Below are positions 3,020 through 60,720 of a stretch of 64,000 nucleotides of DNA, piece after piece. This DNA is from an uncultured virus (IMG/VR IMGVR_UViG_3300027851_000025) (lineage: Duplodnaviria; Heunggongvirae; Uroviricota; Caudoviricetes), in the IMG/VR virus record IMGVR_UViG_3300027851_000025; one strand, 5' to 3'. The notes below the pieces were generated by a model that worked only from the letters and a program-made list of their open reading frames with translations, made no database searches and was not told the origin of the DNA. Position 1 is the first letter of the stretch, and each line of letters starts with the position of its first letter. Both the position numbers and the translations under genes were made by a program.

Positions 3020-3042
3020 ATAACGACCCATTGCATCGATAG

Positions 3043-3076
3043 AAAAGCAGATGGTGTAAAATCCCATCTGCTTTTT
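3043..3076 (+). terminator. intrinsic terminator
   Basis: AAAAGCAGATGG/CCATCTGCTTTTT hairpin after SSB. Confidence 0.8.
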
Positions 3077-3092
3077 GTGGGAAAGGAGGGAT

Positions 3093-3389
3093 ATGAAGAA
3101 GAAATACTGGACAGTTGAAGAGTCCATTGAAGAGGCAAAGAAGATCGGAATTGAAGTGAGCCGACCCACTCTAATCAAATGGATCAATGAATACAAACTC
3201 GGGTTTCAACTCGGTGGGAAGGGTGGTAAGTGGTACACCTATCCACAAAGATATATGAGGTACATCAATGGCGGAAGAACCCAGGCGGCGCAGGATCTCT
3301 ACTCAGACTCAGGAGACACTACAGGAGGAGCCCAAATCCCTGGCAACTCAGATGAGGGAAAGAAGGAGCAGGAGATCCCATCAAGTTGA
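3093..3389 (+). CDS. small excisionase/MerR-like HTH DNA-binding protein
   Basis: YWTVEE..IGIEVSRPTLIKWI..G.KW pattern; AGGAGG RBS. Confidence 0.6.
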   Translation: MKKKYWTVEESIEEAKKIGIEVSRPTLIKWINEYKLGFQLGGKGGKWYTYPQRYMRYINGGRTQAAQDLYSDSGDTTGGAQIPGNSDEGKKEQEIPSS

Positions 3390-4455
3390 AACCTCCAAAC
3401 CTGAATATGACAAATTCCTGTCTACAGGCAGTACAATGTTGAATCTTTCCATTTCCGACCAGATCAACGGCGGATGGCCAATGGGAAAGATAAACACTAT
3501 TCCAGGGCAATCTACTGCCGGGAAAACTATATTGGCTCTCCATAGCCTGACCGAGGCCGCCATTGATTCTAAATTCAATGACTATGAATTGATCCTTGAC
3601 GATGTAGAAAGAAGAATCAGCTTCGATCTGAAAAAGATGTTTCCTCCCCTTTGGAACCGATTGATTACTCCAACCGGGATATACTACAAAGACCTTCTAG
3701 ATGCCGATCCAGAAAAAATCGGCATCTCCAACACCATTCAGGAGTTCCAGGCCAGAATCCTCACCAAGTGCAATAAGGGAATCAAATTCATTTGGGTAGT
3801 GGATAGTCTGGATGCGCTGACCACTGATGAGGAATTGAAGAAAGAAATGGAGAGGGCCGGCAATCTGGAAAAAGGGAAAGAGACCAAGACCGGAACATAT
3901 GCAATGGAGAAGGCCAAGTACATCCACAAGATTCTCCGAACCATCAATGGGGGATTGGCAAATACAGATTCACTTTTATTGATCACCCAGCAACTCCGGC
4001 AAAAGATCGACCCCAGCTTTGGAGAAAAGCATTGGTATACCAACGGTGGTGAAGGCCCATACTTCTACTCCCACGCCCGCCCATTCCTGAAGAAAGGGGC
4101 TGCCATCAAGAAGTTGAATCGGGTGATTGGCCGGGAAACTACTGTAGATATGGATAAGAACTCCGTAAGTGGAAAGTACCGTACAATCAAGTTCAATGTA
4201 TACTATGATATGGGAATTGATGATGTCGGTTCTATGGTTCAATTTCTACTGGATGAAGAGCACTGGAAATCAGGGAGTTGGATTGAAGCCAGGGAGTTTG
4301 AATTGAGAGAGAATGGCAAGGACGCATTGGTCCGGGCCATTGAAGAAGGTGGGCATGAAAAGAGACTGAAGAGGCTGGTCCAGCGTAAGTGGAACGAAAT
4401 TGAAGAGTCTTTGAAGCTCAATCGCAAGCCGAGGTATACGAGTGAAGAAGTCTGA
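3268..4455 (+). CDS. recA: RecA/UvsX-like recombinase
   Basis: LSTGSTMLNL..GGWPMGK, GQSTAGKT, VVDSLDAL, QLR, GGEGPYFYS. Confidence 0.88.
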   Translation: MAEEPRRRRISTQTQETLQEEPKSLATQMRERRSRRSHQVETSKPEYDKFLSTGSTMLNLSISDQINGGWPMGKINTIPGQSTAGKTILALHSLTEAAIDSKFNDYELILDDVERRISFDLKKMFPPLWNRLITPTGIYYKDLLDADPEKIGISNTIQEFQARILTKCNKGIKFIWVVDSLDALTTDEELKKEMERAGNLEKGKETKTGTYAMEKAKYIHKILRTINGGLANTDSLLLITQQLRQKIDPSFGEKHWYTNGGEGPYFYSHARPFLKKGAAIKKLNRVIGRETTVDMDKNSVSGKYRTIKFNVYYDMGIDDVGSMVQFLLDEEHWKSGSWIEAREFELRENGKDALVRAIEEGGHEKRLKRLVQRKWNEIEESLKLNRKPRYTSEEV

Positions 4456-52272: not shown

Positions 52273-52644
52273 ATGATTTCAGTAACAAAGAAGTTTTCAT
52301 TCAGTTATGCCCATCACCTCCCCGAATATGACGGAGACTGTCAAAGGGTCCATGGTCATAACAGCAATGTGGAAGTGGAGTTTTCGAACCAGGCCCCCAT
52401 AATGCCGGCGGCATACCCGGGAATGGTGGTTGATTTCAAAATCATTAAAAAGATTATTGACCCGATCATCGATGAATTGGATCATCACGATCTCAATCAG
52501 GTAATTGTCGGCAATCCAACTGCTGAAAACATTGCTCAATGGATTGCCGACAAGATTGGGAAAACCAGTATTGGGGCTGGTTTGGTCAGGGTCCAGGTAT
52601 CTGAAACCGACGATTCTTTTGCTACCTGGAGGAAGGGAAAATGA
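52273..52644 (+). CDS. queD: 6-carboxytetrahydropterin synthase
   Basis: F..AH.L..Y.G.C...HGH, GMV.DF, LDH..LN, PTAE, ET. Confidence 0.92.
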   Translation: MISVTKKFSFSYAHHLPEYDGDCQRVHGHNSNVEVEFSNQAPIMPAAYPGMVVDFKIIKKIIDPIIDELDHHDLNQVIVGNPTAENIAQWIADKIGKTSIGAGLVRVQVSETDDSFATWRKGK

Positions 52645-53321
52645 GAGTAAATGAAATCTTTTGTTCTTTGGATGGGGAAGTAAATCAATGGGGGCAGGGC
52701 AAACCAACTGTATTCATCCGGCTCCAGGGCTGCAATCTCAGGTGTCCTTACTGCGATACCAAACAGACATGGGATTTGGAAGGGGGAGGTGAATTATCAG
52801 TTTATGAAATTATGGAAAAAGTAAACTCCTCTGGATTTGGCAAGGTCACTATAACTGGAGGGGAGCCCCTTTTTAGTCCTGAATTTGTAATGTTGGCAAA
52901 GGCTCTGGTCGGAATGGGGATTCAAATATCAGTGGAGACGAATGGAACCATCCCGATTCCGGCTGGAGCATGGGCAGATAAAATCTGTTGGGTGGTTGAC
53001 TATAAATTGGAGCTGAAACAATCCCTTGGAGAGTTCGTATCCATCTTGGGGAGAAAACCAAGCATGTGGGTAAAAATCATTATTGGAGGATATGATGATT
53101 TTTACAAGGGGATGGAAATGGTAGAGGATATCACCTTCCTTTTGCCTGATTGTAATTTTGCTTTCAGCCCCATGTTTGGGAAAACCAGTGAGGAACAGAT
53201 TTTTACCTGGATGATCGAGAATAGATATAAACACCCGACTATATTGAATAAAGTGGTGGTGAATACCCAGCTCCATAAAATTATTTTTCCAAAAGGCGAA
53301 AAAAACTTTGTTTTGCCTTAA
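52641..53321 (+). CDS. queE: 7-carboxy-7-deazaguanine synthase (radical SAM)
   Basis: EIF.SL.GE, FIRL.GCNLRC.YCDT, ITGGEP, VETNGT, QLHK. Confidence 0.92.
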   Translation: MRVNEIFCSLDGEVNQWGQGKPTVFIRLQGCNLRCPYCDTKQTWDLEGGGELSVYEIMEKVNSSGFGKVTITGGEPLFSPEFVMLAKALVGMGIQISVETNGTIPIPAGAWADKICWVVDYKLELKQSLGEFVSILGRKPSMWVKIIIGGYDDFYKGMEMVEDITFLLPDCNFAFSPMFGKTSEEQIFTWMIENRYKHPTILNKVVVNTQLHKIIFPKGEKNFVLP

Positions 53322-53419: not shown

Positions 53420-54175
53420 ATGGCCAAGAAGAAAGCAGCAAAAGCCCCAGAAGTCCCCCTGGAAGCCCTTCAGGCAGTAGCAATGGACTTCAATTCCTTC
53501 ATGAAGTTTGCCGAGGGAGATGAGATCCCGGTAGATATGGCATACGACGATCTGCTCGGCGAGCTCACCGAATGTGCTGCCCAGTTGGAAGAGTCCGATA
53601 CCATCCAGCCCGGCACCGCCGAAACCCTGACCGCCTTGGGGTTAGAGTTTGCCGCCACTGTCGCTGAGGGCGAAGCCCAGGCCGATGATGATGCCGATGA
53701 TGATGCCGATGATGATGCCGATGATGATGCCGATGATGATGCCGATGATGATGCCGATGATGATGCCGAGCCCGACAATTCGGAGCTGGTTGCCAAGGTG
53801 AACAAGGCTCGCAAGATCGACGATCTTCTGGTTATTGCCAAGGAAGAGCGGATTGCAGTTCCCCCTCCCTTCCGGAAGGACATCAAGAAGCTGAAGGAAT
53901 ATCTGGTCAAGAAACTGGAAGAAGGCCCCAAGGAGAAACCGGCCAAGAAGGAGAAACCGGCCAAGAAGGAGAAGGCGCCGCGCGGCCCGTCGGTCACGAA
54001 TATGATCTCCATGGAAATCTGCAAGAACGAGAAGGCATCAACAGAAGACATCGCCAAGGTCTTGAAAGAGAACGGAATGGTATTCAGCGACTCTACCATC
54101 AACACCACGAAGGCCGGCGTTCTGAAGGTTCTGAATTGCCTGAAAGAACTCGGTCGACTCAAGCCCATCAAGTAA
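53420..54175 (+). CDS. acidic N-terminal / basic C-terminal protein of unknown function
   Basis: Own promoter and terminator; (ADDD)7 and KEKPAK repeats. Confidence 0.7.
   Translation: MAKKKAAKAPEVPLEALQAVAMDFNSFMKFAEGDEIPVDMAYDDLLGELTECAAQLEESDTIQPGTAETLTALGLEFAATVAEGEAQADDDADDDADDDADDDADDDADDDADDDAEPDNSELVAKVNKARKIDDLLVIAKEERIAVPPPFRKDIKKLKEYLVKKLEEGPKEKPAKKEKPAKKEKAPRGPSVTNMISMEICKNEKASTEDIAKVLKENGMVFSDSTINTTKAGVLKVLNCLKELGRLKPIK
53681..53764 (+). repeat. perfect tandem repeat (GCCGATGATGAT)x7
   Basis: Read directly from the sequence. Confidence 0.95.
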
Positions 54176-54196
54176 TTCCCGACAAACTATATATTG

Positions 54197-54227
54197 AAAG
54201 GGGATGGAGGTTTCCATCCCTTTTTTT
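54197..54227 (+). terminator. intrinsic terminator
   Basis: GGGATGGA-GGTT-TCCATCCC-T7. Confidence 0.88.
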
Positions 54228-54238
54228 GGAGGATCTGT

Positions 54239-54901
54239 ATGAAAGCTATTCTCGCTTTGTCAGGAGGAATGGACTCCGCTACGGTTCTTGCCTGGCTTCG
54301 GAAAAATGGCTATGAAGTGGAATGTTTTTCTTTCTCCTATGGTTCCAAGCATAATCATTGGGAAGGAAATGCTGCCCAGAAAGTAGCAGCATTTTATGGA
54401 ATGGAACTGCAGGAATCGATTGATCTGTCAAACATCACAAAACAATTCAAATCCAATCTCCTGAAAGGCCAGGGCGAAATCCCGGAAGGCCATTATCAGG
54501 ATGAGACCATGTCGCAGACGGTGGTACCCGGAAGAAACATCATTTTTCTTTCTATCTGCGCCGGCCTTGCCTGGTCAAAAGGCGCATCCAAGATTGCCAT
54601 AGGGATTCATCAGGGAGATCATACCATTTACCCCGACTGCAGGGTAGAGTTCTACGAAGAGATGTCTAAGGCGATCTCCACCGGTACAGATGGAAATGTG
54701 GATGAGATCATCGCCCCCTTCCTCCACACCGACAAAGCAGGCATACTCGCTTGGGGCCTGAAAAACGGGGTTCCATATCACCTGACCCGGACTTGCTATA
54801 AAGACCAGCCATTGTCGTGCGGGAAATGTGGATCTTGCGTCGAGCGCCTGGAAGCCTTTGCTTCGGTCGGGATTAAAGATCCGATTGAATATGCAAAGTA
54901 G
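54239..54901 (+). CDS. queC: 7-cyano-7-deazaguanine synthase
   Basis: LSGGMDS, YG..H, VPGRN, YPDCR, TCY..CGKCGSCVER. Confidence 0.95.
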   Translation: MKAILALSGGMDSATVLAWLRKNGYEVECFSFSYGSKHNHWEGNAAQKVAAFYGMELQESIDLSNITKQFKSNLLKGQGEIPEGHYQDETMSQTVVPGRNIIFLSICAGLAWSKGASKIAIGIHQGDHTIYPDCRVEFYEEMSKAISTGTDGNVDEIIAPFLHTDKAGILAWGLKNGVPYHLTRTCYKDQPLSCGKCGSCVERLEAFASVGIKDPIEYAK

Positions 54902-54909
54902 AATAATTT

Positions 54910-55134
54910 TTATTTTTTATGCAAGCCATAAACTGGATGAGTATAGTTATTAATCCAGTTTATGAGGTCTAAGTCTGCCGATTGAGTTTTAGTATAAGCC
55001 GAACGAATTGGATGTTCTTTGGGTATTTTGTTGATATGTTTATGAATAAGACCCAAAGCTTCTTCTAATTTTGATTCGGCTTTGGAAAAATCTAAAAGTT
55101 GTTCATCTGAAAAAGTAAGCATTTTAGCCTCCAT
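54910..55134 (-). CDS. small AT-rich protein antisense to the que cluster
   Basis: 74-aa ORF filling the intergenic gap. Confidence 0.5.
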   Translation of the reverse strand: MEAKMLTFSDEQLLDFSKAESKLEEALGLIHKHINKIPKEHPIRSAYTKTQSADLDLINWINNYTHPVYGLHKK

Positions 55135-55193
55135 AGAGATTGGTTTAATGTATTTAATTATTTTCCGGCTGAAATTGCAAGAGGATTCAACAT

Positions 55194-55415
55194 ATGCAAA
55201 GTAGAAGGGAGTCGCTGGCAGAAGCCTCCTTGAATATCCTCACTGGATTTCTGGTATCCTGGCTGATCACCCCTCCCATCCTGCAGATGTTTGGATACTC
55301 AATATCCATGAACAAGGCGTTTGGCGTCACTGTAATCTATACGGTGTTTTCATTTCTGCGTTCTTACATTTGGCGTAGGATTTTCAACAGGAGAGTAAAA
55401 TGGCAAAAAAGATAG
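55194..55415 (+). CDS. small two-helix membrane protein
   Basis: QS...SL.E...N...G..S..RSY..RR.FN. Confidence 0.65.
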   Translation: MQSRRESLAEASLNILTGFLVSWLITPPILQMFGYSISMNKAFGVTVIYTVFSFLRSYIWRRIFNRRVKWQKR

Positions 55416-56278
55416 TCCTTTCAAACGAACAGATTCAGGAGCGGTGTGCCGACATAGCCAATGACCTGCCAGCTCACAAAAACTTCTATGGGGTGCCAAG
55501 GGGAGGAATCGCTCCTGCTTATTTACTGGCCGGCATGTCCGATGGCTTTGTGGTTTCGAATCCGGAAGAAGCAGATTTCTTTGTCGATGATCTTATCGAC
55601 TCCGGAAGAACCCGGGCAGAATATCGCGAGAGATTCCCCTTCACCCCATTCATCTTTTTGTATGAAAAGATCGATTCCTCCCAGTGGTTCGTATTTCCTT
55701 GGGAAGTTGACAATTCCGGCAATGATACTTCTGGCGAAGACATCTTTATCCGACTCCTGGAGTTCATCGGTGAAGATCCGAGCAGGGAAGGGCTTTTGGC
55801 TACTCCCAAGAGGATGATGCGGGCCTGGACTCATTGGACTCAGGGATACGGCAAATCTCCGAAAGATGTCTTCACTTCATTCGAAGATGGTGCGGAAGAC
55901 TATGACCAGATGCTTCTGGTCGATCCTATTCCATTCTTCTCCCATTGCGAGCACCATCTGGCCATATTCTTTGGGGAGATCCACATCGCCTATATCCCGC
56001 ACAAGAAGATTGCCGGCCTGTCAAAGTTCATCCGGCTGGCAAGGATCTTCTCTCAGCGCCTGCAAGTCCAGGAAAGACTGACGGTTCAGATTGCCAACGC
56101 CATCTTCAACAGCGGCCTGGAAACCCCGGGAGTCGGGGTATTCATCAAGGCCCGGCACATGTGTATGGAATCCAGGGGGGTTTCCACTTTTGGGACCTAC
56201 ACCAAAACCTCGGCTCTCCGGGGGGTATTTATGAAGCCGGAGGTTCGGGAAGAGTTTTTCAACATGATCAAGTTGTAA
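55400..56278 (+). CDS. folE: GTP cyclohydrolase I with N-terminal phosphoribosyltransferase-like domain
   Basis: N-terminal GVPRGG, VDDLIDSG.T, FPWE; C-terminal REGL..TP.R, SHCEHH, GLSK, LQVQERLT, H.CM..RG. Confidence 0.92.
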   Translation: MAKKIVLSNEQIQERCADIANDLPAHKNFYGVPRGGIAPAYLLAGMSDGFVVSNPEEADFFVDDLIDSGRTRAEYRERFPFTPFIFLYEKIDSSQWFVFPWEVDNSGNDTSGEDIFIRLLEFIGEDPSREGLLATPKRMMRAWTHWTQGYGKSPKDVFTSFEDGAEDYDQMLLVDPIPFFSHCEHHLAIFFGEIHIAYIPHKKIAGLSKFIRLARIFSQRLQVQERLTVQIANAIFNSGLETPGVGVFIKARHMCMESRGVSTFGTYTKTSALRGVFMKPEVREEFFNMIKL

Positions 56279-56311
56279 TCCATTTTCCAATTTAACCAAA
56301 AGAGGAAATAA

Positions 56312-56842
56312 ATGAAAAAGTATCTGTGGCCGGCACTGTACCTGTCCAGCATTCTTCTTGGAAACTTCTTTGTCATGTGGTTTGGGATCGTCAAGTTTGC
56401 CGGCCTGACCTTCCCTGCCGGCGTTATCTTTGTCGGTCTGACCTTCTCCTTCCGAGATTTTGTTCAACGCCAATGGGGAGACTACGCCTGCTGGATCTGG
56501 ATGGGCCTGGCCACAGTCATTACCTTCTTCCTCAACCGGCAAATTGCCATCGCCTCGGTCACTGCCTTTTTTGTTTCAGAGCTGGTCGACTGGGCTTGTT
56601 TCAAATACTTGAAGTTTTCATTCAGGAAGAGGATATACATCTCAAACCTGTTCTCCTGCCCATTGGATTCTATAATCTTCGTTACCCTGGCATTTGGATG
56701 GTTTTGGCCGGCGATCTGGGGTCAGGCTCTGATCAAGTATCTTTCCGGGTTATTGGTCCTACCTTTCCTTGGTTTGAAGGATCGCATTCCTGCCGACAAT
56801 AACTATACCGACATCTTCCCTTCTTACGGAGTTGGAAAGTGA
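56312..56842 (+). CDS. yhhQ: VUT-family queuosine precursor transporter-like membrane protein
   Basis: N.., G.TF..RD..Q, IA.AS..AF..SE..D, SN..S..LDS..F...AFG. Confidence 0.75.
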   Translation: MKKYLWPALYLSSILLGNFFVMWFGIVKFAGLTFPAGVIFVGLTFSFRDFVQRQWGDYACWIWMGLATVITFFLNRQIAIASVTAFFVSELVDWACFKYLKFSFRKRIYISNLFSCPLDSIIFVTLAFGWFWPAIWGQALIKYLSGLLVLPFLGLKDRIPADNNYTDIFPSYGVGK

Positions 56843-57049
56843 AAGTTTATCTTGCCGGGGTTCCAGGGGGGTTCTCCAGGAGATTGTAAGAGGGAGAGGG
56901 AACTCTCCATTAAGTTCAAAAGAAGACTACATTCTTACTATCACATCAAAATAACAAAAAGTAATCTGATCAATCCAAATGAAAATATATCTAGCATCGG
57001 GATATTCTGTAATGAATACCAAAGGCAGAGAGAGAGAGATGCTAAGTAG
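56839..57049 (+). pseudogene. mini-module 1, frameshifted at G6 (56866-56871)
   Basis: MKVYLAGVPGG stops early; +1 frame gives SPGDCKRERE..KRRLHSYYH. Confidence 0.7.
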
Positions 57050-57167
57050 ATTTGGGGGCGCGTATAAAAGATTAGTATCCTATTATGATTTGTCAAGAGG
57101 CAATAAAATACTTAATATAATAAATCTGAATACGAATGAAAATATATCTTGCCGGAAATACCCCTGA
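56979..57167 (+). CDS. mini-module 2, intact
   Basis: MKIYLASG..RERE..KRLVSYY; (AG)6 tract. Confidence 0.75.
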   Translation: MKIYLASGYSVMNTKGREREMLSRFGGAYKRLVSYYDLSRGNKILNIINLNTNENISCRKYP

Positions 57168-57318
57168 CAGAGAGAGAGAGGAGAAAATTCTTTTACAGAA
57201 AAACCTGACCAGAAAAAGACTTTTGGCTTTCCATTACCTTCTCTGTGATAAGAATGTAAAATTAATGTTTGATCTATGGACAAATGAAAATAAACTTTGC
57301 AGGAACTCCAGGAACTAG
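57136..57318 (+). CDS. mini-module 3, intact
   Basis: MKIYLAGN..RERE..KRLLAFHY; (AG)6 tract. Confidence 0.75.
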   Translation: MKIYLAGNTPDREREEKILLQKNLTRKRLLAFHYLLCDKNVKLMFDLWTNENKLCRNSRN

Positions 57319-57419
57319 AGGGAGAGAGAGATTGGCAAAAGATTTTCAATAAGCGCCTGCTCTCCTTCTGGAACTATACAAATAATGAATTTAACATCCC
57401 ATTTGCTTTTGAGGAATCA
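57284..57419 (+). pseudogene. mini-module 4, frameshifted at (GA)5; its +1 frame is continuous with the DpdA-like ORF
   Basis: MKINFAGTPGTRGRER stops at 57352; +1 frame gives DWQKIFNKRLLSFW...MKNKIDIFLDSGAF. Confidence 0.72.
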
Positions 57420-58313
57420 ATGAAAAACAAAATTGACATCTTTCTCGACTCCGGGGCCTTTTCCGCATTCACTCAGAATGTTCAAATCGACATCGAAGAA
57501 TACATTGCCTTCATCAAGGAACACCAGTCGAATCTGGAAGTATATGCCAATCTAGATGTTATAGGTTCGCCGAAAGGGACCTGGATGAATCAGAAGATCA
57601 TGGAGCGTGCCGGCCTGAATCCCCTCCCCTGTTTCCACTACGGGGAGGATCTGAAGTGGCTCCACAGATATCTGAATACCGGGTATGAGTATATTGCCCT
57701 TGGAGGCATGGTTCCGATCTCGACCCGTGATCTCATTAAGTGGTTGGATACCCTCTTTGCAGAGCACTTGACCGACTCCAATGGTTTCCCGATAATCAAG
57801 GTCCATGGCTTCGGCTTGACCAGCTTGACTCTCATGCTTCGCTACCCTTGGTTCAGTGTCGACAGTACTTCCTGGGTTATGACCGGTAGAATGGGCTCTA
57901 TCTACGTTCCCAAGCGAACCAAGGGGCAATGGTCATATCATGAGGAAGCGGTGAAAATAGCCGTATCTACGCGCTCTCCGAGCAAGAAGGATGCCAACCA
58001 GCATATCTCCACCCTATCCCCGAAAAGAAGGCAGGTCATCCTCGATTACTTGGACGAAAAAGGATATGCCCTTGGGTCCTCCAGGTTTCGGAAAGAGTCC
58101 GAGAAATACGAGCTCAAAGAGAATGAACGATGGGATGGCAAGGCTGTAAATGGAAAGAGGGGCGTGGAGGAAGTCATCGAACCGGGAATCAGCAATGACT
58201 ACAAACTCAGGGACGAGATGAACATTATCTATTTCCTCGATCTGGAAAAGTCCTTTCCGCCGTATCCCCGGCAATTTCAGGTCAAGAAGAGAGTGGGGTT
58301 GAAAGGACTATGA
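57420..58313 (+). CDS. dpdA: TGT/DpdA-like 7-deazaguanine transglycosylase core
   Basis: FLDSGAFS, LDVIG, P.FH.GE, ALGG, VHGFG.T, SVDSTSW; GAGG RBS; adjacent preQ0 genes. Confidence 0.75.
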   Translation: MKNKIDIFLDSGAFSAFTQNVQIDIEEYIAFIKEHQSNLEVYANLDVIGSPKGTWMNQKIMERAGLNPLPCFHYGEDLKWLHRYLNTGYEYIALGGMVPISTRDLIKWLDTLFAEHLTDSNGFPIIKVHGFGLTSLTLMLRYPWFSVDSTSWVMTGRMGSIYVPKRTKGQWSYHEEAVKIAVSTRSPSKKDANQHISTLSPKRRQVILDYLDEKGYALGSSRFRKESEKYELKENERWDGKAVNGKRGVEEVIEPGISNDYKLRDEMNIIYFLDLEKSFPPYPRQFQVKKRVGLKGL

Positions 58314-58495
58314 AAGTATTTCTTGCGACTTGGGTTTTGGAGCCTTCCCAGGGTCAGACCTTGACAAAGATGGAGGCTGGCAATAGGCTTTTGAGTTACT
58401 TCCATACCAAGCAGAAAGAAGAGGTCTTTTCCGTATATTGTAGACGAGGTGTAAATGAAGATATATCTGGCAGGAAACGGGGCAATGCCAAGTGA
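58310..58495 (+). CDS. mini-module 5, intact
   Basis: MKVFLAT...NRLLSYFH. Confidence 0.7.
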   Translation: MKVFLATWVLEPSQGQTLTKMEAGNRLLSYFHTKQKEEVFSVYCRRGVNEDISGRKRGNAK

Positions 58496-58650
58496 AGAGA
58501 GAGAGAGTATATTCAGAAAAAGAATGCTTCTTTATTCATCAGCGCCTCTTCTCTTTCTTTGAAATTCAGCCTGGAAGATTTGCCCACTCTCAATGGAATT
58601 GGATAATCCAAAACAAGGGGAAAATTCATGAAGAGGATCGAGGATGTTAA
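58455..58650 (+). pseudogene. mini-module 6, frameshifted at (AG)6 (58496-58507)
   Basis: MKIYLAGNGAMPSEERE; +1 frame gives VYSEKECFFIHQRLFSFFE. Confidence 0.7.
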
Positions 58651-59218
58651 AACTGGGATGGTAAGAAGAAAAAACGTTACTTCCTATTTCGAAAGGGAAC
58701 TTACCAAAAGAGGGAAAGGATATATCAAAGCTATTGGACCATCATTTATCGAAGAAGAATTAACCCCAAAACAAATACATGATCTCAATCTTCCGACAAA
58801 TAGAACCTTGAGAAATAATTCAAACAGTCTTGGTTTGACCTGGCAGTTTAAGAATGAAATAACCAGAATCAGCAGACTCGTTGAAATAAGAGAATATGGG
58901 GATAATTATTTGAAATCACCATCTATTTATAATGGTGATATTGATAAAGCGTATGATTTCTTTAGTCCACATATTTTCCTGGTAGTGGAATATGATAATG
59001 AAAATAACCCATGTAAATTTAGTAACTTAGTAGAAGTAGGAAGTATCCCAAAGAAAATGTTTTACTTTTCCGAATCAAAAGGGAATCGAAATCGAATAAA
59101 TATAAAAGGATTCTCCAGATATTTTACTATGTATAAAATGAGCAAACACCGGAGTGGTATTTTGAATCGGCCAGATGTAATCGATCAACTGGATATTATC
59201 CTTTCCGGTAAAGAATGA
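58628..59218 (+). CDS. AT-rich hypothetical protein, possible PD-(D/E)xK/DUF559-like nuclease
   Basis: YDFF....FLVVEYD pattern only. Confidence 0.4.
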   Translation: MKRIEDVKTGMVRRKNVTSYFERELTKRGKGYIKAIGPSFIEEELTPKQIHDLNLPTNRTLRNNSNSLGLTWQFKNEITRISRLVEIREYGDNYLKSPSIYNGDIDKAYDFFSPHIFLVVEYDNENNPCKFSNLVEVGSIPKKMFYFSESKGNRNRINIKGFSRYFTMYKMSKHRSGILNRPDVIDQLDIILSGKE

Positions 59219-59388
59219 AAATCTATCTAGCCAGCACCGCTCCAGGAACGGAAGGAACTGAAAAAAACCAGTTGATCTCCATCCCAATTCCAAAGCGCCT
59301 GCTCTCTTATCACCATATCAAATTCAATCAGTTCGGAACCCGGGTCGTCTTTAATGCCTTAACCACAAGGAGGAACAAAACCAAATGA
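59215..59388 (+). CDS. mini-module 7, intact (57 aa, not in ORF track)
   Basis: MKIYLASTAPGT...KRLLSYHH; ATGA overlaps at both ends. Confidence 0.75.
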   Translation: MKIYLASTAPGTEGTEKNQLISIPIPKRLLSYHHIKFNQFGTRVVFNALTTRRNKTK

Positions 59389-60392
59389 AAATCAATCTGT
59401 CGCAATTCAAGGAAGTTCTTGGCAAGGTCAAGCCAGGCTTGTCAAGCGGTAAGGAGACTACAGAGCAGTCCGACTGCTTCGTATTCCACAAGAACCGGAT
59501 CTTCACCTACAACGACGAGATTTCAGTCAGCTGCCCCTGGGAATCCCCGATTGAAGGTGCCGTCCCGAGTAAGGAGCTTCTGGCCCTGGTCAATAAGTTG
59601 TCGGCTGAAGAAGTAGAAATGAACATGGAGAATGGGGAGCTCAGGATCAAGTCAGGCCGATCCAAGTCAGGGCTGGTAGTTCAAGCAGACATCCACATGC
59701 CCATCGACGAGATCGTGATGCCAAAGAAGTTTAGTCCACTTCCCAAGAACTTCACTGCCGGCCTGAAGTCATGCGTCTTCTCTGCTTCCAACGATTTCAG
59801 TTTTCCGATCCTCACGGTCGTCCATTGCCTGGATTCTTGGATGGAGTCTACGGATAACGATCGGGCAACCAGATGGGAGTTGAGCAAACAGTGGTTCAAG
59901 AAGCCGGTCCTGATCCCGGTCGTCGCCGCCAAGGCTTTGTCTGGGTATTCAGATGTAAAAGCCTATCACGACGATGGGAGTTGGGTCCACTTCCAGATTG
60001 GGGATTCCTTGGTATTCAGCTGCCGGACCATTGATGGGGATTTCCCTGACATTGGAGGATACTTCAAGACCGATGGGTATGAGCTGGAGTTCCCTAGCTC
60101 CACCCTGGATATCCTTAGCAGGGCCGGTATATTCGTGGAAGCCGACAACTCTGAGAAGCTGGTCCACGTCTCGGTGAATGAGAAGGGGGTTATGGAGATC
60201 AAGGCTCAGTCGGATCATGGTTGGTATAATGAAACCATTCGATTGAAAGCAGCGCCAAAAACAGCCCTGGCATTCTCCATTCATCCCGACTATCTGTCAC
60301 AGATACTCAGCTCCACCGGGAAAGCCACTATTGGTGAAAAGCTGGTATTGTTTGAGACAGAGAACTTCAAACATGTAATTGCCTTGGAATAG
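59385..60392 (+). CDS. dnaN: DNA polymerase III beta sliding clamp-like protein
   Basis: 335 aa; P.LT.V, STD..R, RTIDG.FP; three-domain beta-clamp pattern. Confidence 0.75.
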   Translation: MKINLSQFKEVLGKVKPGLSSGKETTEQSDCFVFHKNRIFTYNDEISVSCPWESPIEGAVPSKELLALVNKLSAEEVEMNMENGELRIKSGRSKSGLVVQADIHMPIDEIVMPKKFSPLPKNFTAGLKSCVFSASNDFSFPILTVVHCLDSWMESTDNDRATRWELSKQWFKKPVLIPVVAAKALSGYSDVKAYHDDGSWVHFQIGDSLVFSCRTIDGDFPDIGGYFKTDGYELEFPSSTLDILSRAGIFVEADNSEKLVHVSVNEKGVMEIKAQSDHGWYNETIRLKAAPKTALAFSIHPDYLSQILSSTGKATIGEKLVLFETENFKHVIALE

Positions 60393-60426
60393 AATAAACA
60401 AACCCATTAAACAGGAGAAATCAACC

Positions 60427-60720
60427 ATGAAGCATGCCAGAACCGACTACGACTGTATCCAGGACCCATCCGGCAAGATCGCTGAAGACGAACCTGTATT
60501 CCTTCTTCGTGCCAAGGATAAGATTGCTCCCACCATCGTCAGGGCCTGGGCAAAGCATTTGAAGCTAAATGGAGGGGATTGGCGGACCGCCAATAGGGCA
60601 ATGGATTGGGCAAACGAAATGGAGAAGTGGCAGAAAACGAATGGATCGAAGATGCCGGATACTCCCAAGGAATTGATTCCCGAGTTTCCTGCCGGCCAAG
60701 TCAACGATCACTTCTGCTGA
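60427..60720 (+). CDS. small conserved phage protein
   Basis: DEPVFLLRAKD..AP..V..WA; AGGAG RBS. Confidence 0.65.
   Translation: MKHARTDYDCIQDPSGKIAEDEPVFLLRAKDKIAPTIVRAWAKHLKLNGGDWRTANRAMDWANEMEKWQKTNGSKMPDTPKELIPEFPAGQVNDHFC

Follow-up and report, generated by a model that had tools for sequence, protein, structure and literature searches.

A putative modular DpdA in an uncultured phage: candidate interchangeable N-terminal heads and slippage-prone repeat tracts around one core

Modification of phage DNA with 7-deazaguanines is a main route past restriction enzymes. In a stretch of 64,000 nucleotides (nt) from an uncultured Caudoviricetes virus (IMG/VR IMGVR_UViG_3300027851_000025), referred to below as the window, a gene for a predicted enzyme of this kind, a DpdA related to the tRNA-guanine transglycosylases (TGT), lies within an array of seven short units that resemble the N-terminal part of the enzyme. 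We call these units heads and the remainder of the enzyme the core, and the reading that we favour, and regard as probable, is that of a modular DpdA with interchangeable heads, some of which would be switchable by slippage in repeat tracts.

The closest described enzyme is DpdA of Salmonella Montevideo (7UI4), for which passages of the structural report name D95, D130, H181 and D256 as the catalytic residues and describe a structural zinc site (CxCx2Cx22H) conserved in the DpdA family, an insertion between strand 1 and helix 1 (Ins1) that helps to form the DNA-binding surface, and an insertion between strand 2 and helix 2 that flanks the active site and may contribute to sequence-specific recognition (PMC10164549). 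As far as those passages describe it, the Salmonella protein is like the window enzyme in its triosephosphate isomerase (TIM) barrel and in the order of its catalytic residues, and the window gene likewise shares the phage setting of DpdA beside FolE, QueD, QueE and QueC. The described DpdA proteins are single chains in the parts of the sources that treat them (PMC10164549; DpdA1-DpdA4, bioRxiv 10.1101/2023.04.13.536721), whereas in the window the first two barrel units would exist as separate genes too, and the passages of bioRxiv 10.1101/2023.04.13.536721 that were searched make no mention of a frameshifted or truncated DpdA. The zinc motif marks a further difference, in that none of the 46 full-length and none of the 61 short-form sequences of the clade to which the window enzyme belongs contains CxCxxC..H.

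For the arrangement of the genes, other systems offer closer likenesses. The pilE/pilS system of Neisseria keeps silent partial gene copies beside an expression copy, and (beta/alpha)8 barrels that have been split in the laboratory reassemble non-covalently from their fragments; we know of no natural gene family of quarter barrels. Unlike the pilS copies, those of the window have their own start codons and purifying selection as open reading frames (ORFs), and they are predicted to yield separate polypeptides. In phasevarions, repeats or alternative specificity modules of Type I and Type III restriction-modification methyltransferases randomly change DNA modification, as parts of two sources set out (PMC5909438, PMC7383803); those are bacterial methyltransferases with target-recognition domains, whereas the window holds a phage base-exchange enzyme whose variable part would be a piece of the catalytic barrel. 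In phage T2, passages of a recent preprint describe the DNA-modification gene agt as a homopolymer contingency locus, the loss of which escapes a modification-dependent defence and the regain of which escapes another restriction system (bioRxiv 10.1101/2025.10.21.683753), and this provides a ready rationale for the switching of dpdA heads. The scan in that study took in only homopolymers of at least six, leaving dinucleotide repeats and deazaguanine genes outside its coverage (bioRxiv 10.1101/2025.10.21.683753). The two cases also differ in kind: agt has homopolymer A tracts and is turned on or off as a whole gene, whereas in the window the tracts are (GA)n runs in paralogous heads, and the off state would leave a translatable core.

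Cultured relatives of the window enzyme are 41-47% identical to it, with Burkholderia phage BcepGomr gp31 and Shewanella phage S0112_095 at 41-42%. In both of these the match starts at residues 3-4, so that one fused head is present, as in the dpdA gene here, and in both phages the genes follow one another as in the window (QueC, QueD, FolE, x, DpdA, x, clamp, polymerase). Neither phage has extra heads (best independent E-value, iE, 8.5) or an array of GA tracts in the 2.5 kb to each side of the gene. No description of head arrays around DpdA was found in the literature, preprint supplements being outside the search. The arrangement is presented as a variant of a known enzyme system, for which the mechanism proposed below draws on inference and structural models.

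Head units and the interrupted dpdA gene

The elements of the array are as follows, all positions being those of the window.

56839..57049, + strand: unit 1, class-1 head ('VPGGG..GDCKRERE..RLHSY') in two frames, broken at the G6 run 56866-56871
56979..57167, + strand: unit 2, intact mini-gene of 62 amino acids (aa), class 2 ('GGMTVMNVKGRERE' type), with (GA)n tract 57027-57039
57136..57318, + strand: unit 3, intact 60-aa mini-gene, class 3 ('GNTPDRERE'), with (GA)n tract 57169-57180
57284..58313, + strand: unit 4 plus core, the dpdA gene; class-4 head with ATG at 57284 and a frameshift in the (GA)n tract 57322-57331
58310..58495, + strand: unit 5, intact 61-aa mini-gene, class 5, lacking a repeat tract; ATGA overlap with the dpdA stop
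58455..58650, + strand: unit 6, head in two frames, with (AG)6 tract 58496-58507
58628..59218, + strand: ORF196, 196-aa gene inserted between units 6 and 7
59215..59388, + strand: unit 7, intact 57-aa mini-gene, class 7; joined by ATGA overlaps to ORF196 on its upstream side and to the sliding-clamp gene on its downstream side

A preliminary description of this DNA had placed seven paralogous units at these starts, and the placement is confirmed in two ways. A 17-nt pattern, RTGAARRTNWWYYTNGC, has exact matches in the whole 64 kb only at 56839, 56979, 57136, 57284, 58310, 58455 and 59215, where 0.01 matches are expected by chance and seven were reached in 0 of 100 shuffles; a separate repeat search placed six of the unit starts in one group (family D1). 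The pattern comes from the units and so cannot test them independently; the weight rests on an independent profile, for which the N-terminal parts of 44 full-length homologues of other origin were used, each ending immediately ahead of the core. When run in six frames over the window and 26 related loci, this profile matched all seven units, the best part of each at iE 1.9e-10 to 1.6e-4, and gave only four other matches in the window (iE 2.5-15); it also matched in 23 of the 26 viral loci, always on the strand of the enzyme gene. The start of the clamp gene, MKINL, was considered as an eighth unit and dropped, as the N-terminal profile does not match it.

The relationship holds in the other direction as well. 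A profile made from the four intact window units matched 24 of the 120 best homologues of the enzyme at iE<1e-3; 22 of the 24 matches begin at residues 1-5 and 22 fall among the 48 full-length forms, with 0 among the 61 short forms. The conserved module of the units, some 45-50 aa long, is therefore a paralogue of the N-terminal segment of full-length DpdA/TGT-like proteins, of which the units had been proposed to be copies. The proposal that they are mini-genes of about 57-70 aa stands for units 2, 3, 5 and 7, which are the only intact ORFs, and fails for units 1, 4 and 6, each of which is divided between two reading frames. In unit 1 the profile matches 56842-56880 (iE 0.15) and 56870-56953 (iE 1.9e-10), and in unit 6 it matches 58455-58529 and 58519-58596, in different frames in both cases.

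Among the intact units, unit 2 (iE 5.8e-6) has orthologues in L002, L005 and other loci that are whole in 8 of 8 cases, unit 3 (iE 1.1e-7) has orthologues in L002 and L024, and unit 7 is matched at iE 3.2e-7. Orthologues of unit 6 occur as free-standing mini-proteins, one in frame in L030 (position 4033, 46 aa) and one as the N-terminal unit of the protein P0132. Overlaps of 4 nt join several of the genes: the GTG start of unit 1 overlaps the stop codon of the upstream Vut_1-like gene as GTGA, and ATGA overlaps link dpdA with unit 5, ORF196 with unit 7, and unit 7 with the clamp gene. Pfam gave nothing meaningful on the four intact units and PHROGs gave no match on the units, and a promoter and terminator scan of 54000-60500 returned 14 promoters against 9.2±3.0 and 6 terminators against 7.8±3.0 in shuffles, numbers that do not differ from those of the shuffles, with no unit-specific signal.

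The preliminary description had further taken the core to be natively headless, and this is not what comparison with homologues indicates. The 338-aa open frame was used as the query and recovered 4293 relatives at E<=1e-5, and in the best 120 of these 4293 the lengths are bimodal: 61 proteins start no more than 11 residues from the xFLDSGAF motif, 50 have 46-96 residues before it, and 9 begin part-way into the head, several of them exactly at RERE. One full-length relative, P0001 (343 aa), is 90% identical to unit 4 plus the core; it starts MKINFAGTPGTKERERDWQKLINKRLLSFWNY...ESMKNKIDIFLDSGAF, that is, unit 4 and then the core, and reads through without a break from MKINFAGTPGTKERERDWQK. In the window the frame opened by the unit-4 ATG runs for 22 codons before a stop, and the core lies in the +1 frame relative to it. 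From the Thr codon to the Trp codon there are 16 nt of spacer in the window, as against 18 implied by P0001 and 14 in a more distant relative from run X4, and one GA unit added to the tract at 57322-57331 gives 343 open codons in place of 22. Judged by this comparison, unit 4 plus the core is an ordinary full-length dpdA gene, the frame of which is broken by a (GA)n tract lacking 2 nt. Within it an internal ATG at 57420 begins a 297-aa headless core, and a Met no more than 12 residues before the core motif is found in 47 of the 50 full-length proteins, against an expectation of 27%, which fits a conserved internal start.

Repeat tracts, head classes and selection

Dinucleotide tracts of at least five units are rare in the window: there are only 5, and 4 of them are the GA tracts of units 2, 3, 4 and 6 (57027-57039, 57169-57180, 57322-57331 and 58496-58507), which encode the RERE-like segment. 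A GA tract at position 507 was set aside, as it lies inside a clamp-loader-like ORF (3-803) unrelated to the units. The preliminary description had noted the RERE-like segment, which is indeed shared; its encoding by (GA)n tracts, the switching that such tracts suggest and the conserved classes of head described below had all escaped it. In whole units RERE is encoded as AGAGAGAGAGAG in 13 of 18 cases, which are not independent of one another, where about 1.5% would be expected from codon use in the window (AGA 27% of Arg, GAG 45% of Glu).

The tracts are strongly associated with broken reading frames. In 148 distinct units from the survey described below, those with a GA tract of at least 10 nt comprise 25 split and 28 whole units, and those that lack one comprise 2 split and 93 whole (odds ratio 41.5, Fisher p 1.4e-11). 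The frame offset among split units is +1 in 17 and +2 in 10. In class 1, the purine run after the Cys codon measures 15 nt in five whole units and 9 nt in one, and in split units it measures 13 nt (5 units), 11 nt (2), 17 nt (1) and 15 nt (1), the single split unit with a 15-nt run probably belonging to another class. In three loci with head regions 89-93% identical (L087, L090 and L060), tracts of 12, 10 and 14 nt go with 358, 27 and 23 open codons, respectively, and among relatives in general the tract lengths differ by whole GA units, in 2-nt steps.

Every broken unit of the window can be repaired at one repeat tract, by a single repeat unit in units 1 and 4 and by two AG units in unit 6. 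Removal in silico of one G from the G6 run of unit 1 raises the open codons from 16 to 69, and removal of four tract letters (two AG units) from unit 6 raises them from 35 to 63. Contigs of the run X4 relative omit four letters at 58496 in unit 6, and this relative has other tract lengths than the window in both units 4 and 6. In L006 a class-1 head (3411-3458) loses its frame in a run of nine G, at a place that GGN Gly codons occupy in other heads, and together with window unit 1 it makes poly-G appear to be a second kind of slippery tract in the heads. Taken at the level of sequence, the tract lengths and the pattern of frameshifts are the signature of slippage-prone contingency tracts.

The survey of other dpdA loci that the preliminary description had called for was made by adding 80 metagenome loci to the viral loci, and it uncovered similar arrays. 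In the resulting 71 non-redundant loci there are at least 176 units, a lower bound as are the other counts, many contigs being short: 123 are whole, 29 are split, 20 are represented by the C-terminal part only and 4 by the N-terminal part only, with 91 units upstream and 85 downstream of the core. Most fall into recurrent classes, the main ones being the following.

Class 1 (VPGGG..GDCKRERE..RLWSY; window unit 1): 26 units, 13 whole and 13 split; 25 upstream, 12 fused in frame
Class 2 ('GGMTVMNVKGRERE' type; window unit 2): 8 of 8 whole
Class 3 (GNTPDRERE; window unit 3): 5 whole, 1 split
Class 4 (TPGTxREREWQ..RLLSFWDI; window unit 4): 17 units, 8 whole and 9 split; 16 upstream
Class 5 (ATWLxExSQG..LTK..RLLSYFHTK; window unit 5): 28 of 28 whole; all just downstream of the core, never fused
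Class 6 (TTV; no window unit): 9 units, all whole; 8 fused
Class 7 (ASTAPGNE..RLLSY; window unit 7): 12 of 12 whole; all downstream

Classes 2, 3 and 8 are smaller than the others, and window unit 6 is unclassified. Class-1 heads are found fused to the core in other phages, and class-4 heads are free-standing in surveyed loci and fused in P0001, P0003, P0004 and the window. The order of the classes is conserved across cores that are only 50-60% identical.

Several units have been kept under constraint in related loci. The proportion of non-synonymous differences (pN) is lower than that of synonymous differences (pS) in every pair compared in four classes: 351 of 351 pairs in class 5 (median pN 0.353, pS 0.856), 66 of 66 in class 7, 28 of 28 in class 2 and 10 of 10 in class 3. 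Between the window and its close relative L001, the non-synonymous and synonymous rates (dN and dS) are 0.021 and 0.248 for unit 5 and 0.019 and 0.367 for unit 7, so that dN/dS is about 0.05-0.09. These substitution patterns show that the free-standing head classes are coding sequences held under purifying selection. When 1.84 billion representatives were searched with a profile built from 27 class-5 proteins, 324 clusters scored E<=1e-3, of which 145 reached E<=1e-10; lengths of 41-107 aa account for 148 of the top 150, and none of the top 150 is a full-length DpdA.

Two heads were also seen in one reading frame, as head-head-core in P0060 and as head-head in the small proteins P0124, P0132 and P0144.

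Exchange of heads, completion of the barrel and alternative explanations

That heads are swapped onto the core by recombination, one of two possibilities raised in the preliminary description, is supported by L001, in which the near-identical core carries a class-6 head where the window has class 4. The flanks of L001 are 91-98% identical to those of the window, and a single class-6 head fused in frame replaces units 1-4 (56859-57419); homology is lost 20 nt past the beginning of unit 1 and is picked up again at the core ATG, so that the breakpoints lie at unit and core starts. Downstream of the core, L001 lacks window positions 58472-59213, with the junction again within the conserved unit start. 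In the run X4 relative unit 6 is present and 58605 is joined to 59214, which means that ORF196 is absent. Since ORF196 is an indel between close relatives, missing from both L001 and the run X4 contigs, it is a passenger and not a unit. It has no Pfam or PHROG match, and there are weak leads to a PD-(D/E)XK nuclease fold (features 0.91-0.93, TM 0.39-0.52), such that it may be a mobile nuclease promoting the shuffling of the locus.

Other insertions were encountered in the same genes. In L001 an in-frame insert of about 322 aa (3038-4003) lies in the DpdA core between RYPWY and SVDSTSW, where the window has none, and the core of L026 also has an insert, with 622 aa to the stop. The L001 insert starts with Cys and ends with Asn before Ser and thus looks like an intein, placed beside the presumed nucleophile Asp; Pfam found no match on it. 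In P0141, a 218-aa protein from another metagenome, a class-5 head reads through into a sequence resembling HNH-type homing endonucleases, and this fusion would be a further sign of mobile nucleases at the locus.

As to the enzyme itself, the core matches phrog_887 'queuine tRNA-ribosyltransferase' at 5.3e-59; Pfam gave only noise on it at E<=0.1, the Pfam TGT model giving no match, and a sequence search of the PDB with the core gave only noise (E 1.9). An AlphaFold model of P0001, built with 46 full-length sequences, has a mean predicted local distance difference test score (pLDDT) of 81.7 and shows, ahead of the DSG strand at 53-55, two strands (residues 5-6 and 25-26) separated by a helix. 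Among structures compared with this model, Foldseek ranks the DNA preQ0 insertase DpdA 7ui4 first (E 1.9e-3), and VIA gives for 7ui4 a Z of 11.7 and a root-mean-square deviation of 4.7 over 254 aligned residues (model residues 4-327); tRNA-guanine transglycosylases come next at Z about 11, and model residue 1 aligns to residue 37/38 of the Z. mobilis TGT. D56 in the DSG motif (presumed general acid), D92 (presumed base-binding Asp), H175-G176 and D194 in SVDST (presumed nucleophile) are invariant in the 46 full-length sequences and have the order of D95/D130/H181/D256 in 7UI4, being equated by order and strand position and not by residue-level superposition. As part of the modular-head reading taken as a whole, it is likely that the locus encodes a phage DpdA, a TGT-like enzyme predicted to put 7-deazaguanine into DNA.

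The preliminary description had supposed that the core lacks a complete barrel and that a unit could complete it, and the models agree on both points. Modelled alone with the 61 short forms (pLDDT 92), the core has six barrel strands by DSSP, which together with the fold of the P0001 model indicates that the head supplies the first two of the eight strand-helix units; the array units are thus predicted to correspond to the first two strand-helix units of a TIM barrel. When the core (alignment of the 61 short forms) was co-folded with unit 5 (alignment of 27), the unit that was tried, ipSAE was 0.89 (0.90, 0.87 and 0.89 in the individual runs) and 0.00 in the best of three controls, with a partner pLDDT of 76 and at least 91% agreement of contacts between runs. 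Among solved complexes 116 of 157 attain the mark applied to ipSAE, whereas 2 of 215 mismatched pairs do, and the mark is roughly applicable here, where own alignments were used. Unit 5 residues 2-5 contact core residues 145-148 (the FSVD strand) and residues 26-30 (RLLSY) contact core residues 7-11 (IFLDS), so that unit 5 is predicted to take the places of barrel strands 1 and 2 on the headless core.

In the modular reading the head would be the first quarter of the enzyme, barrel strands 1 and 2 with their loops, and would exist in many versions, of which the unit-4 head is written in front of the core as in a normal full-length gene and six more lie around it. The four free-standing mini-genes would be translated in the same operon-like run, with its ATGA or GTGA overlaps. 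Whenever the cis head is out of frame, the core would be made from the conserved internal Met, and a free-standing head would then close the barrel in trans, the GA and poly-G tracts acting as contingency loci at which replication slippage turns individual heads on or off. The heads would carry the strand1/helix1 and strand2/helix2 loops, and a head could tune specificity because those loops, as passages on the solved DpdA describe them, touch DNA and flank the active site (PMC10164549); a change of head may then alter which guanines, or how many of them, are modified. A bolder form of this proposal, which we put forward tentatively and think may well be wrong, is that of one core with many heads, where each core-head pairing would modify guanines in a different context, slippage would switch between them and recombination at unit starts would reshuffle them. 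If that were so, a phage population would carry a mixture of 7-deazaguanine patterns, a form of bet-hedging towards classical restriction on the one hand and defences recognising the modified base on the other, and the locus would encode a natural combinatorial split TIM-barrel enzyme.

Several observations weigh against a modular enzyme of this kind. Only 20 of 66 loci have a Shine-Dalgarno-like motif ahead of the junction ATG, and three runs agree on the off state of unit 4, in a comparison that used assembled contigs of four runs and so reflects majority tract lengths only, contigs dropping minority variants. In the full-length model confidence is lowest over the head (pLDDT 56-71), and the co-fold may pass because of the homology of the unit to the natural N-terminus and not because of real binding. 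In loci with at least 700 nt on both sides of the core, 11 of 12 with an in-frame cis head also keep free-standing heads, which are then not simply substitutes, and of the 29 whose cis head is absent or out of frame, 5 have no intact free-standing head within the DNA covered; in these five, either the core works alone or the heads lie elsewhere or are too diverged for the profile. Both tallies are approximate, since the automatic labelling of core states errs for some loci, as in L015 and L017, which were labelled 'none upstream' and have a long-linker fusion and a frameshifted head. In L006 (2638) a plain 5' remnant consists of a head and FFLDSGAF followed by a stop. Finally, the classes were assigned by simple motifs, with 39 units left unclassified, and the units are related by descent, so that the counts represent non-independent events.

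Of the alternatives, the one that survives best, which we nevertheless regard as unlikely, is that the units are selected mini-proteins that do not complete the barrel productively, being instead regulators or inhibitors at the head site, or proteins that dock to partners such as the neighbouring replisome. It would suit the persistence of free-standing heads beside an in-frame cis head (the 11 of 12 loci), the translational coupling of unit 7 to the clamp gene, and class 5, where no Gly follows strand 1 and where 'ATW' and 'YxKTG' are conserved as features of its own; the co-fold, too, shows only that the site fits. However, the co-folded unit is predicted to make exactly the contacts that strands 1 and 2 make natively, and classes 1, 4 and 6 occur fused, with class 4 also free-standing, and the finding of the same classes in fused and, for class 4, free form argues for the equivalence of free and fused heads.

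It is less probable still, and to be given little credence, that the units are debris, functionless 5' fragments of dpdA left in a hot spot by repeated recombination and by homing-endonuclease or intein traffic, with the frameshifts as decay. The indels between close relatives that end exactly at a unit start and at the core start, the L006 remnant, the broken state of window units 1 and 6, and the presence of mobile elements (the intein-like insert of L001, the ORF196 indel and the HNH-like fusion of P0141) are all what such traffic might leave behind. Debris would not, however, be expected to keep its set and order of classes across cores of only 50-60% identity, nor to show pN<pS in every pair and the low dN/dS seen between the window and L001; moreover, 0 of 40 class-5 and class-7 units are broken, ATGA overlaps tie units to their neighbours, and the frameshifts cluster in repeat tracts and leave both halves conserved.

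The recurrence of the breaks at one place, with conservation of both halves, could also be explained by read-through, in which programmed ribosomal frameshifting or transcriptional slippage on the GA tract gives a full-length DpdA, and a two-base shift on (GA)n would be expected to let the same codon re-pair. This is improbable to a high degree, since both offsets occur (+1 in 17, +2 in 10) and tract lengths step by 2 nt around the in-frame length, which fits slippage of the DNA and not one programmed shift; in-frame alleles of the same classes are, in addition, about as common as broken ones. Errors of sequencing or assembly, to which simple repeats are prone in some chemistries, are hardly credible as a cause, given that contigs of two further runs, from other samples and studies, match the window across the unit-4 tract with 0 differences, that the independent record L027 is identical to the window throughout units 5-7, the unit-6 break included, and 99.96% identical over the 2.66 kb of 57452-60110, and that the same pattern is seen in dozens of unrelated assemblies.

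Implications of the modular reading and neighbouring genes

Should the modular reading hold, the locus would single out the first quarter of the barrel as a specificity part that is exchangeable in nature, and natural chimeras, in which the same core carries different heads, are at hand for probing the target motif and the extent of modification. If heads work in trans, this would be a natural enzyme made of a core and interchangeable quarter-barrel subunits, with a bearing on TIM-barrel evolution and on the engineering of sequence-specific base exchange. Through the GA tracts, the range of phage contingency loci would widen from homopolymers to dinucleotide repeats and from the switching of whole genes to that of parts of enzymes. 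Arrays of this type are common in uncultured phages, as the 176 units in 71 loci and the 324 class-5 clusters indicate, and are absent from the two cultured relatives examined.

Directly upstream of the array lie genes for the 7-deazaguanine precursor (preQ0 pathway) and a transporter.

52273-52644, + strand: QueD (Pfam PTPS, 1.6e-31)
52641-53321, + strand: QueE-like radical SAM protein (Pfam Radical_SAM, 1.3e-14)
54194-54901, + strand: QueC (Pfam QueC, 4.3e-59)
55400-56278, + strand: FolE with an N-terminal extension (Pfam GTP_cyclohydroI, 1.4e-60)
56312-56842, + strand: Vut_1/YhhQ-like membrane protein, a transporter (Pfam Vut_1, 4e-13)

Between the QueE-like gene and QueC, at 53420-54175, is a gene for a 251-aa protein with a long acidic stretch of DDDA repeats and no Pfam match. 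The N-terminal extension of FolE, of about 115 aa (55400-55750), likewise has no Pfam match and contains the stretch VDDLIDSGRT, which we take to be typical of phosphoribosyltransferases. The sole difference between the window and L027 in the range given above is one T in a short T run at 59936-59938, in the sliding-clamp gene, which would shift the frame of the clamp in one of the two records.

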